The notes beneath the pieces were generated by a model, which made no database searches, was not told the DNA's origin, and saw only the letters and a program-made list of their open reading frames with translations. From the NCBI RefSeq assembly GCF_013122565.1, contig NZ_CP053258.1: a DNA stretch of 64,000 bases. One strand, 5' to 3'. This DNA comes from Escherichia coli. GTDB taxonomy: Bacteria > Pseudomonadota > Gammaproteobacteria > Enterobacterales > Enterobacteriaceae. Of this stretch, positions 1 through 48,780 are shown one piece after another (the stretch's first letter is position 1; the number at the start of each line of letters is the position of its first letter). The translations under genes were made by a program, and so were the position numbers.

Positions 1-277
1 GAGGGATTTACAGACCAGCGGCATAGTGGGGTTGTCAGCCAGTAAGGTGGGATACAGGCACAGTGATCGACATGGTGAGGTCAACGACAAAAAAAATGTT
101 GCCGTTCTGCCAACAGTTCCTGCCAGCATTCGGGCAACGAAGGGTTCTACTGGTGGATACACATACCAGGGGAATAAAGTCGTTTTAGCCTCTCCTTTAG
201 TAATCACCGGGGGTAATGAAATCAGCATCTGCATCCCTCGTCATGCCAGCCATCAATTTCAGTTGCTTATGTCCTGA

Positions 278-9441: not shown

Positions 9442-9591
9442 ATTGCGCTCCTGATTGTTGCAGGTAGTGTCTCTCTTCGAAGCGGATAAGTCAAAAACAT
9501 ATATGTTTTAACGAATGCGTATGTGCAGAGAAAGGTAATAGATGTGAGTTAAGAGTTGGGTATTTATTGGAAAAGACCTGAATCAGGACGT

Positions 9592-9620
9592 AAAAAAACC
9601 GACTTTGCGTCGGTTTTTTA
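9592..9620. terminator. Bidirectional rho-independent terminator-like hairpin (A-run, ccgac-ttt-gcg-tcgg stem, T-run)
   Basis: aaaaaaaccgactttgcgtcggtttttta: GC stem flanked by A7 and T6, so it can terminate on either strand. Confidence 0.6.
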
Positions 9621-9736
9621 CTTTCCAGCCCTGAGTTGGTGGCTCTGGCTGGAGTGAGATAGTCATCATCTAACGCATCAATGCTAATACCATACTGAAA
9701 CTATTGCAAGGACGTGCTGGTTTTATAACCCGCAAG

Positions 9737-18456: not shown

Positions 18457-18723
18457 ATTTATTAACCTTCCAATACCATCCTGAAAAGTATGAACGCGTA
18501 AGGGATAACGCGCGAAAAAGTTTACATCTGTCAGAGATTCTTAATATTGATGCGGTGAATAGATTAATACACTATTACAACAGAAAATAACCAGCTGATC
18601 ACACTAATGATGGAAAATATGATGGTGTTAAATGTTGTATTGGCAGGGGGTTTTGATTGCGTGCGCAGATCGTAGGCCAGATAAGGTGTTTACGCTGCAT
18701 CAGGTAACAAGGCGCGCCAAAAA

Positions 18724-18750
18724 GCAAAACGCCCGCATATGCGGGCGTTC
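18724..18750 (-). terminator. uspA rho-independent terminator
   Basis: gcccgcatatgcgggcg hairpin followed by a T-rich run on the minus strand just 3' of the uspA stop. Confidence 0.65.
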
Positions 18751-18773: not shown

Positions 18774-19208
18774 TTATTCTTCTTCGTCGCGCAGCGGAAC
18801 AATCAGCATATCAACGTGAACGGTGTTGATCAGCTGACGTGCGGAAGACATCAGTTTGCTCCAGAAGTCCTGGTGGTGACCACAAACCACCAGATCCATA
18901 TCGTATTTCTTGATTGCATCGACCAGAACCTGGCCCAGGTCGCCGCTGCCGCTCAGGGTTTCAGTGATTGGGTAGCCTGCATTAGTGGAAAGCTCGGTCA
19001 GCGCATGATGTGTCTCTTCAGAGATGCGTTTCTGCATATCACCCAGATTCACATCAATAAGCCCGGTGTATAGGTCAGAGTAGTTTACATCTACGTGGAT
19101 CAGAGAAACTTTCGCATTATAGGGGCGAGCCATAGAGACTGCTTTCTCTACCAGAACTTTGCTTTCCGGGGAGAGATCGACCGCGATGAGAATGTGTTTA
19201 TAAGCCAT
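18774..19208 (-). CDS. uspA: Universal stress protein A (144 aa)
   Basis: Translation [24 protein letters not shown]... matches UspA. Confidence 0.95.
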
Positions 19209-45216: not shown

Positions 45217-45275
45217 GCCCTGTATACGGAAATGATGCCAGAAGTGCCGCCGGGGCACTCTGGCGGCAAAAAGGT

Positions 45276-45842
45276 TTAACTTTCCCAGGTAATATCCAGC
45301 AACTCACTCTTCTCGTCGAAAGTAAATACCAGCAACTGATCCGAGATATCTTTTGATATCCCATAATCCACAGTCATTTTTAACCTGCCTGGAGCAGGGG
45401 CGGCTATCCAGAGATGAACGCCACGTAAAGTGATTTGCTTTGCACAAGCCTCGTGCGTAGGTGGAGTTATATCTAGAGATTGCAATGTTTCAGCATCGAG
45501 TTCATCTAAATGAAACTCAATAAACTCATCAACAAACGCATTTGTTCCTTTCTTTTGCGCAAGTATGTTGCGGATAATTTCAGTACATGCAGGGAGGCTA
45601 TCCAGGAGTGGAACGATTTTCTCAATGGGGGTATTTGGCAGGACATCTTCAAAAATATTTAGCCAGACAGTTCGTTTTTCATTGTTAAGCGTAACGGGTA
45701 CGTATTCCGCGAAACCCTCTGACTTATCAACAGCGAGCCTTCCCCAGTAATTTGAATTTAACGTAATCATCCATTGATTCCATTTATATGTTATGTAATG
45801 AGATGCTGCGAAGCCCGTATTAGATAGCTTCGCAGGGCTCAC
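45276..45842 (-). CDS. Hypothetical soluble protein (188 aa if the GTG at 45842 is used; about 164 aa from the internal ATG, MITLNSNYWGRL...)
   Basis: Long ORF immediately downstream of zntA on the same strand; no recognisable motifs; the first ~20 codons of the long form overlap a 9-bp-stem hairpin. Confidence 0.4.
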   Translation of the reverse strand: MSPAKLSNTGFAASHYITYKWNQWMITLNSNYWGRLAVDKSEGFAEYVPVTLNNEKRTVWLNIFEDVLPNTPIEKIVPLLDSLPACTEIIRNILAQKKGTNAFVDEFIEFHLDELDAETLQSLDITPPTHEACAKQITLRGVHLWIAAPAPGRLKMTVDYGISKDISDQLLVFTFDEKSELLDITWES

Positions 45843-45878
45843 CGTATATCATGGTCAGGATGACAGCAATCCGAAAAA

Positions 45879-48080
45879 CTACCCCTTCCTGCGCAACAAT
45901 CTTAACGCATTCGCCGTCACCAGCACCGTCGCACCCGTATCTGCCAGCACTGCCAGCCATAGTCCGGTCATCCCTAAAAGCGTGGTGACGAGGAAGATCC
46001 CTTTCAGCCCCAGCGCAATGGTGATGTTCTGGCGGATATTGGCGTGAGTGGCGCGTGCCAGTTCAATCATTTGCACCAGGCCGCGCAGGTGGTTATGGGT
46101 TAATGCTGCGTCGGCGGTTTCCAGCGCCACGTCTGTGCCGCTACCCATTGCAATCCCAATGGCGGCAGCTTTCATCGCTGGCGCGTCGTTAATACCATCA
46201 CCGACCATCGCCAGGGGCGCATGTTGATTCAGCTTGGTCACCGCTTTGACTTTATCTTCCGGCAAGAGGCCCGCTTTAAACTCCAGCCCCAGCTCCCCGG
46301 CAATTGCGGCCGCTGCGCGTGGATTATCGCCGGTGAGGATCACTCCTTTAACCCCCAGCGCGTTCAGTTCACTGATGGCAGTTGCAGCATCGGCGCGCAG
46401 GGTATCCTGTAACGCAATGACACCAAGCACGTCATTGTTACGTACTACCAGCACTACCGTTTGCCCGGCGCTTTCCAGTTCGTTAATTAAACCAGCAAAT
46501 GCATCAGCGGGATGTTTCCCGGCAGCGCATATCAACACGCGCTCACCGTTAACCTGCGCTTCAATGCCAGACCCGACCAGCGCCCGCTGTGATTCGGCGG
46601 CGGGAATGGCGAGTGCAGCAACCTGTGCTTCTCGCACGATGGCCTGCGCCAGTGGATGCGTCGCGCCTTGCTCGACCGCCGCCGCCAGTGTCAGCAGTTC
46701 AGATTCACTAATACCCGTTGCCGGATGAATCGCGGTAACGCGCGGTTTACCGACGGTCAGCGTACCGGTTTTATCAAACGCCACCTGGGTAACATGACCC
46801 AGCTGTTCCAGCGCCGCTCCGCCTTTAATCAACGCCCCACGACGCGCTGCCGCCGCCAGCCCGGAGGTAATCGCCGCAGGCGTTGAGATAACTAACGCAC
46901 ACGGGCAGCCAATCAGCAGCAGCGTCAGCCCTTTATAAATCCACTCCTGCCAGCTGGCGGCAAACAGCAGCGGTGGCACCAGCGTCACCAGCAGAGCGAC
47001 GGCCATAATCGCGGGCGTATAGATACGGCTGAAACGGTCGATAAACCGCTCAATGGGTGCGCGACGCTCTTCGGCTTCTTCGATCAGTTTTAGAATCCGG
47101 TCAATGGCGCTGGCACCCGGTTCTGACAGCACTTCCAGCGTTACCAGACGGTCTACGCTGGTGGCACCAGCAGGGACTTTATCGCCCGTCGCGCGCTCCA
47201 CCGGAATGGATTCTCCGGTCAGGGCGCTTTCATCAAAACTGGCAAACGGTGAGAGCAGTTTACCGTCGGCAGGCAAACGTCCACCTGCGGCGACTTCAAT
47301 CATATCGCCAGGGCGCAGGCTGTTAATCGCCACCTCTTCCCGCTCACCGTTACGCAGGCGCGTGGCGGTTTCTGGTTTCAGCGCCATTAACGCGCTAACG
47401 CCCTGACGCGCGCGGCTGGCGGCCCAGCCTTCCAGTCGTTCACCAATCAAAAACAGCAGCAACACCATCGCAGCTTCAGCCGTTGCGCCAATAAACAGTG
47501 CACCAATAGCGGCTACGCTCATTAAGGTTTCAATGGCGAAGTAGCTGCCGGATTTGATCAGCCGTAATGCCTGACGAGCAATCGGGTACAGCCCAACCAG
47601 CGTGGTCGCGATAAACGCCAGTTGCCCGAACGGATGATTAAATTGCTCCAAACCCCAGCTGATTGCCATCATCACGATAAGCGTAATCAGCGGCAGATTC
47701 TCTTTCAGGCGCGATGCTTGTGGCTCGTCGGCGGCCTGCTCATCGCGCAGGGAATAGCCCGCTTTTTGCACCGCAGATTCAACTTGTGCACGGATGTCAT
47801 TGTCGGCATCAACCACCAGTTTTTCGGTGGCGAACAACACCTGTACCTGATTCACGCCTGCAAGCTGGCGCACGGCATTTTCTACCTTGCGCGCACAGGC
47901 GGCGCAGTCCATGCCGCTGACTTTCCAGCTATAGCGGGTGCCGGAGACGTTTTCAGAGAGAGTTGGCGTGCTGGAACATGCGCCGTCGCAGCAACAGTCG
48001 TTGGCGTTCTGTACCGTGGTTAGCGGTTTGAACGCAGCAAATTGAGGGGCTTTCTTGCCGTGATTGTCAGGAGTCGACAT
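45879..48080 (-). CDS. zntA: Zn(II)/Cd(II)/Pb(II)-translocating P-type ATPase ZntA (about 732 aa)
   Basis: N-terminal CCCDGAC and GMDCAAC metal-binding motifs, CPC transmembrane motif, DKTGT phosphorylation site. Confidence 0.95.
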   Translation of the reverse strand: MSTPDNHGKKAPQFAAFKPLTTVQNANDCCCDGACSSTPTLSENVSGTRYSWKVSGMDCAACARKVENAVRQLAGVNQVQVLFATEKLVVDADNDIRAQVESAVQKAGYSLRDEQAADEPQASRLKENLPLITLIVMMAISWGLEQFNHPFGQLAFIATTLVGLYPIARQALRLIKSGSYFAIETLMSVAAIGALFIGATAEAAMVLLLFLIGERLEGWAASRARQGVSALMALKPETATRLRNGEREEVAINSLRPGDMIEVAAGGRLPADGKLLSPFASFDESALTGESIPVERATGDKVPAGATSVDRLVTLEVLSEPGASAIDRILKLIEEAEERRAPIERFIDRFSRIYTPAIMAVALLVTLVPPLLFAASWQEWIYKGLTLLLIGCPCALVISTPAAITSGLAAAARRGALIKGGAALEQLGHVTQVAFDKTGTLTVGKPRVTAIHPATGISESELLTLAAAVEQGATHPLAQAIVREAQVAALAIPAAESQRALVGSGIEAQVNGERVLICAAGKHPADAFAGLINELESAGQTVVLVVRNNDVLGVIALQDTLRADAATAISELNALGVKGVILTGDNPRAAAAIAGELGLEFKAGLLPEDKVKAVTKLNQHAPLAMVGDGINDAPAMKAAAIGIAMGSGTDVALETADAALTHNHLRGLVQMIELARATHANIRQNITIALGLKGIFLVTTLLGMTGLWLAVLADTGATVLVTANALRLLRRKG

Positions 48081-48122
48081 GGCATCCTCCGGTTAAGTTT
48101 TTTCTCATTAACCGAAGGATAC

Positions 48123-48144
48123 ACTCTGGAGTCGACTCCAGAGT
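48123..48144. promoter_or_regulatory. ZntR (MerR-family) operator within the zntA promoter
   Basis: Perfect 22-bp palindrome ACTCTGGAGTCGACTCCAGAGT between a TTGACT -35 and a TATCCT-like -10 on the minus strand, giving the long spacer typical of MerR-type promoters. Confidence 0.7.
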
Positions 48145-48153
48145 CAAGTTTTA

Positions 48154-48780
48154 TCAGAGATACAGCGAGCGGACGATGAGGAAGTGACCGGCAAAGTAGC
48201 AGGCCGCAGCAATCGCGTTATCCGCATGGAAGCGTCGGCGATAGTGGCTACCCAGCCAGACAAAGTTACTGATAAACAGCAACGAAGCGCCAACAAACGC
48301 AGAGAGTGCCGGAGCGGTCGGACGGAAGAACCACAGTTCACCTGCCAGCCACACCATCACCAGCGTCATGCCGATAAACGTGCAGATAGGCCAACGATAC
48401 TCTTCCAGCCGCGTCCAGATAATCGCCAGTAACAGCGCGCCCAGAACCAGCAACACCAGTGGCAGAGGCCAGAAGAAAGAGAGCGTCATCTGACTGGCGA
48501 AATAGATGGTGTACAGCAGGTGCGAGAGGAAAAACGCGCCGATGGCGTACATCAGACGTTGACGTGGCAACAGGGTTAGCGCATCGCCCAGCAGTGAGGC
48601 GCACAGCCCTGCCAGCACCAGATAGCTAATGGCGTCGAACATCGGCGCTTGCCAGGCCAGTAACAGCAGGAGAAGAAGGGTTAACGGTTTAAACACCCAG
48701 CGTTGCCAGGTAGGCCCACGATACGATGCATCCACAGATAGCCATGCGGAAAGACAGACAGCGATAAACGACCAAAGCAT
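48154..48780 (-). CDS. yhhN: Inner membrane protein YhhN (208 aa)
   Basis: Polytopic membrane protein; synteny. Confidence 0.8.

Follow-up and report, generated by a model that had tools for sequence, protein, structure and literature searches.

A palindromic ZntR operator in the zntA promoter within a 64-kb stretch of Escherichia coli DNA

The 64-kb window, that is, the whole stretch of Escherichia coli DNA analysed here, carries on its minus strand the genes yhhN and zntA, separated by a 73-nt intergenic region in which the zntA promoter (PzntA) is located (Table 1). The downstream gene is identified as zntA, encoding the Zn/Cd/Pb efflux ATPase, both by its RefSeq annotation and by the NCBIfam model NF033775, against which the open reading frame (ORF) scores 1447 bits at a cut-off of 1240; its product is 98.5% identical to ZntA of strain K-12. 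The 1.2 kb around the operator described below has a match in 5,425 of 5,426 complete E. coli genomes, where the RefSeq annotation names yhhN and zntA. The intergenic region is identical to that of K-12 MG1655, and the flanking coding DNA agrees with it at 97.9%. The upstream gene closes with tandem stop codons (TGA TAA; window positions 48148-48156), 6 nt from the -35 hexamer of PzntA. Elsewhere in the window, two RNAs score above the Rfam gathering score, namely the AgrB antisense RNA (9590-9673, minus strand, 108 bits) and the ES205 sRNA (89-160, minus strand, 105 bits).

Table 1. Features at and around the zntA promoter, in window coordinates.
Feature	Position	Strand	Basis or remark
yhhN, co-directional upstream gene	48154..48780	-	Pfam YhhN, 1.2e-46; context only, outside the operator
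-35 hexamer TTGACT of PzntA	48142..48147	-	Sequence and PMC3431237; ACT shared with the start of the palindrome
Operator assigned to ZntR	48123..48144	.	11+11 dyad, centre between 48133 and 48134; equals the published ZntR consensus
20-bp spacer	48122..48141	-	Direct count; 17-bp sigma-70 optimum plus 3 bp
-10 hexamer TATCCT	48116..48121	-	Matches TATAAT at 4/6 positions
Expected transcription start	48108..48109	-	A residues 7-8 nt past the -10; promoter geometry only
Shine-Dalgarno GGAGG	48086..48090	-	5 nt ahead of the zntA ATG
zntA, Zn(II)/Cd(II)/Pb(II) P-type ATPase, regulated gene	45879..48080	-	733 aa; NCBIfam NF033775
164-aa ORF	45770..45276	-	Co-directional with zntA, 108 nt past the zntA stop

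The ~660 bp directly 3' of zntA (45220-45880) occurs in only one of 5,426 complete E. coli genomes, that of strain 6EVA, at 97.5% identity, and the G+C content of the segment is 0.434 versus 0.582 for zntA. Within it lies the 164-aa ORF, a horizontally acquired gene whose copy in 6EVA bears the RefSeq label 'DUF2004 domain-containing'; this label is unsupported for the ORF here, for which zero Pfam or NCBIfam matches were obtained. At the junction with the rare segment, the C-terminus of ZntA is changed (45879-45890), the protein comprising 733 aa and ending in ...LRLLRRKG versus 732 aa and ...LRLLRRR in K-12. In the gap between zntA and the 164-aa ORF, a simple scan detected neither a sigma-70-like promoter nor a terminator-like site, and the ORF might be co-transcribed from PzntA.

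The element at 48123-48144, ACTCTGGAGTCGACTCCAGAGT, is a 22-bp inverted repeat whose 11-nt arms match perfectly with zero gap, as the sequence-only reading had stated; the repeat ends at 22 bp, the flanking c48122 and c48145 being non-complementary. Analytically, 64 kb should contain ~0.015 palindromes with arms of at least 11 nt. Such a palindrome arose in 3 of 200 runs when the window was simulated by a first-order Markov model, and ACTCTGGAGTCGACTCCAGAGT at up to 3 mismatches found zero matches in 100 dinucleotide shuffles. These figures bear on the possibility that the element arose by chance or belongs to a dispersed, REP/BIME-like repeat family and has no specific function, a notion favoured by the abundance of extragenic palindromic repeats in E. 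coli intergenic DNA and by the nearby tusA-zntA gap, which holds sequence matching ~30 places per genome. A REP/BIME element would be present in many copies per genome, whereas the operator is found at a single locus; it is, moreover, identical to an experimentally defined site and kept as far as Vibrio with symmetric substitutions. The search of the E. coli genomes gave a median of 2 places in each, explained by the self-match of the palindrome on the opposite strand; for strain 2022H048, the only variant among the records listed, in which the palindrome is broken, it gave 1 place, so that the operator is effectively single-copy and the apparent second genomic site is rejected. The chance or dispersed-repeat reading, whose probability is put at next to nil, is refuted by statistics, copy number and conservation.

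Just one further perfect 22-bp palindrome is present in the 64 kb, at 18728-18749 (AACGCCCGCATATGCGGGCGTT). With 64% G+C and the tail TTGCTTTTT on the minus strand, 25 nt past a 144-aa minus-strand ORF (19208..18774), it looks like the classic shape of an intrinsic terminator, as judged from its sequence; REP-like sequence adjoins it at ~18660-18705.

The minus strand reads TTGACT-N20-TATCCT, followed by 35 nt to the zntA ATG at 48080. The measurement of the spacer that the sequence-only reading had called for was carried out and gave 20 bp (48141..48122) between TTGACT and TATCCT; the spacer is over-long, as had been proposed, with its length corrected to 20 bp rather than 22. The palindrome had likewise been placed between the two hexamers, which holds on the side of the -10, where the dyad stops 1 nt short, but not on the other side, where the dyad begins inside the -35 and shares with it the 3 nt ACT that close the hexamer. 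Of the 22 bp of the dyad, 3 belong to the -35 and 19 to the 20-bp spacer. PzntA combines recognisable sigma-70 hexamers, a spacer in the 19-20 bp range and a dyad overlapping that spacer. The generic sigma-70 scan, in which only spacers of 16-18 nt were admitted, did not report PzntA, and an over-long spacer predicts such a miss. Judged by promoter geometry only, zntA transcription is predicted to start at A48109/A48108. The Shine-Dalgarno sequence CCGGAGGATGC is kept in Citrobacter and Enterobacter.

The published spacer lengths of PzntA disagree, as 20 bp is given in PMC3431237 (with TTGACT as the -35), PMC1526738 and PMC7911910, versus 19 bp in PMC9189660. Upstream of the zntA orthologues of Citrobacter, Enterobacter, Photorhabdus and Vibrio, the same architecture, TTGACY-N20-NANNNT together with the dyad, is retained (Table 2), and outside the promoter the DNA of the five genera is unalignable. 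When registers were compared across the five genera, the 20-bp spacer was alone in giving every -10 its A2 and T6 (5/5), with 4/6 matches to TATAAT in each, whereas the 19-bp register gave 0-2/6 matches and kept neither A2 nor T6. Since only the 20-bp register fits the five genera and the direct count, the 19 bp of PMC9189660 is unsupported by sequence. This comparative test decides the discrepancy in the literature for 20 bp and in that respect goes beyond confirmation; the cross-species footprint and the register test support the over-long spacer of 20 bp without recourse to published data.

Table 2. Promoter elements upstream of zntA orthologues in five genera.
Source	-35	Operator	Spacer	-10
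Window / E. coli	TTGACT	ACTCTGGAGTCGACTCCAGAGT	20 bp	TATCCT
Citrobacter werkmanii	TTGACT	identical 22-mer	20 bp	TATCCT
Enterobacter sp. Bisph1	TTGACT	identical 22-mer	20 bp	CATACT
Photorhabdus caribbeanensis	TTGACT	ACTCTGGAGTAGGCTCCAAAGT	20 bp	TAGAGT
Vibrio bivalvicida	TTGACC	ACCTTGGAGTAGGCTCCAAGGT	20 bp	TACACT

The columns that are invariant across the five genera comprise TTGAC, the TGGAG/CTCCA cores of the arms, and A2 and T6 of the -10. In the Vibrio operator, two symmetric double substitutions (positions 3/20 and 4/19) preserve the dyad, and symmetry is lost over the 4 bp at its middle (TCGA to TAGG); the central bases are asymmetric in Photorhabdus as well. The kept arms and the asymmetric centre fit recognition of the arms by a dimeric protein that deforms the middle of the site. 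Within E. coli, 5,397 of 5,425 genomes carry the 52-nt promoter at 100% identity, and in 5,069 of the 5,425 the surrounding 1.2 kb shows just 95-99% identity. As divergence of at least 1% would often change a neutral 52-mer, this identity, although counted over genomes that are not phylogenetically independent, points to purifying selection. E. coli 2022H048 (NZ_AP029609.1), one of the 28 genomes in 5,425 whose 52-nt promoter departs from that of the window, carries a natural operator variant, ACTCTGGAGTCGACTCTAGAGT; a C-to-T change at position 17 converts CTCCAG to CTCTAG in the right arm, within the otherwise invariant CTCCA core. Distant P1B-ATPase genes carry MerR-type promoters of their own, at L036 1130-1161 (Microcoleus), L060 1437-1468 (Synechococcales) and L074 1425-1455 (Ramlibacter); in the two cyanobacterial loci, Microcoleus and Synechococcales, the spacer of 20 bp holds a 22-bp dyad of another sequence, ACTTTGACATCAATGTCAAGGT-like and common to both, and the Ramlibacter locus has a 19-bp spacer.

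An additional candidate was considered downstream of the operator, where GTCGACTCCTGA (48067-48078, minus strand), beginning at the third base of the zntA ATG, is an 11/12 direct copy of the right half-site. It sits 52 nt downstream, and 10 of 2,000 shuffles do as well; in Citrobacter the copy is degraded by 2 mismatches, and Enterobacter, Photorhabdus and Vibrio lack it. Because of this decay and absence, it is not taken as a functional auxiliary half-site; the codons for MSTPD probably produce the resemblance by coincidence.

The palindrome could also be read at the level of RNA, as a hairpin serving as an intrinsic terminator, either of yhhN (minus strand) or of antisense transcription (plus strand). 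As RNA, the operator hairpin folds at -13.7 kcal/mol, and the simple scan, in which no other terminator-like site appeared between yhhN and zntA, classed it among terminator-like sites for the plus strand, with 9 pairs (5 G-C) and the tail CAAGTTTTAT. This weak T-run is confined to the plus strand, where there is no gene to terminate, all upstream sequence being antisense to the 2.2-kb zntA, whereas in the sense of yhhN the tail is GTATCCTTCGGT, without a T-run; a stem-loop with a U-tract on the strand of the terminated gene was hence not found at this element. The terminator-like palindrome at 18728-18749 is of another kind in its G+C content and tail. Moreover, the position of the element is tied to zntA across species, its distance to that gene being kept, but not to the 3' end of the gene upstream, from which it lies 6 nt after yhhN in E. 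coli and 190 nt after a yhhN-like ORF in Photorhabdus (a gap in which no terminator-like site was seen), while in Vibrio it comes after a different, unrelated 414-aa ORF. Conserved hexamers at a fixed 20-bp spacing, as well as the loss of central symmetry in Photorhabdus and Vibrio, would not be predicted by a terminator, and in a Y. pestis microarray study yhhN-zntA behaves as one co-expressed unit (PMC2231364). The terminator reading, thought very improbable, is rejected on account of the missing T-run in the yhhN sense, the missing plus-strand gene and the position that follows zntA.

Since yhhN has no terminator of its own and stops 6 nt before the -35, its transcripts must enter the operator. 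A further proposal, regarded as unlikely, holds that the 9-bp hairpin, perhaps together with a roadblock of operator-bound apo-ZntR, would set or stabilise the 3' end of the yhhN mRNA and shield zntA from Zn-independent read-through; in a related proposal, confined to the strain of the window, the ZntR-controlled transcript would extend into the 164-aa gene. In the same leader region, an inverted repeat of 26 nt (48071-48096 / 48108-48133) is 73% complementary, and CGGTTAA...TTAACCG brackets the zntA 5' leader just ahead of the Shine-Dalgarno sequence; Citrobacter retains the two arms around a loop that differs, and one mismatch is present in Enterobacter. As a 5'-UTR hairpin, this candidate is rejected, because the predicted start falls within its 5' arm and folding from 48112 resembles shuffles (z = 0.29); with the start so placed, the full stem would exist only in yhhN read-through transcripts.

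The palindrome is almost certainly the operator of ZntR, a MerR-family zinc sensor, inside the sigma-70 promoter of zntA, with binding and activation being taken from the literature. The assignment to ZntR made in the sequence-only reading is supported by the ZntA ORF, the identity with K-12, the published consensus and the conservation, and none of the data run counter to it. The primary mapping of PzntA is reportedly that of Brocklehurst et al. (1999, PMID 10048032), which PMC9189660 and PMC3431237 cite along with Outten et al. (1999, PMID 10608803). The raw sequence had sufficed for recognising a MerR-type promoter, and finding a ZntR operator here confirms the window as the E. coli yhhN-zntA locus. 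In a full-text literature search for the 22-mer, PMC1526738 was the sole match; it describes the ZntR-binding consensus within the 20-bp promoter spacer, to which ACTCTGGAGTCGACTCCAGAGT is identical at 22/22 positions. An Enterobacter promoter with the identical operator and a 20-bp spacer is reported in PMC7911910, together with footprinting of PzntA by ZntR, and a passage of PMC3431237 cites DNase I protection of PzntA by ZntR. In vivo, when compared with a zntR knockout, ZntR represses PzntA at low Zn and activates it ~10-fold at high Zn (PMC9189660). The ZntR operator of PzntA is thus already well characterised, and the site in the window is an ordinary, already known one.

No ZntR homologue was found in the 64-kb window (tblastn best E = 0.24), as expected from K-12, where zntR (3,438,705-3,439,130) lies ~167 kb from zntA; the presence of zntR in the window's own genome is assumed from E. 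coli generally. E. coli ZntR matches the ZntR equivalog models. In the proposed mechanism, a dimer of ZntR, whose gene lies elsewhere on the chromosome, would occupy the two 11-bp half-sites, which would reach from the 3' end of the -35 across nearly all of the 20-bp spacer. With 3 bp more than the 17-bp optimum, the hexamers would be too distant from one another and off helical phase (~100 degrees and ~1 nm in B-DNA), so that the promoter by itself would be weak. Apo-ZntR would repress PzntA slightly, and ZntR bound to Zn(II), or to Cd(II) or Pb(II), would kink and underwind the centre of the operator; this distortion would realign the hexamers for RNA polymerase and switch on zntA, and the pump would export the excess metal. 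The kink-and-underwind geometry is attributed to ZntR by analogy with structures of CueR and BmrR. The PDB holds DNA complexes of CueR and CadR and none of ZntR, for which the only entry is 1Q08, comprising residues 43-141 without the DNA-binding domain and without DNA. It is by inference that ZntR is taken to accommodate a 20-bp rather than a 19-bp spacer.

PzntA with ZntR is a textbook case of a promoter activated through distortion of its DNA, and it serves as a standard part in whole-cell biosensors for Zn, Cd and Pb. The closest comparison is the PzntA/ZntR system of E. coli K-12 itself, with which the window shares the 22-mer, TTGACT, the 20-bp spacer, TATCCT and the downstream gene; there are zero differences in the promoter, and the strain of the window differs downstream, in the ZntA C-terminus and the 164-aa ORF. 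A second comparison is offered by PcopA and CueR (PDB 4WLS, 4WLW, 6LDI and 6XH7), in which, as at PzntA, a MerR-family dimer recognises a dyad in an over-long spacer; CueR, to which ZntR is homologous (E = 5e-22), activates PcopA by DNA bending and underwinding, and the target is a P1B-type metal-efflux ATPase as well. CueR promoters, however, have a 19-bp spacer and respond to +1 ions (PMC8169799), in contrast to 20 bp and +2 ions at PzntA. Similarly, PmerT with MerR (Tn501, Tn21), the archetype of the family, shares with PzntA the TTGACT -35 (PMC3431237), the dyad in the spacer and the switch from repressor to activator. MerR promoters differ in their 19-bp spacer, in a shorter, interrupted dyad and in a divergent, autoregulated merR beside the operator, whereas zntR is unlinked and reported to be non-autoregulated (PMC1526738).
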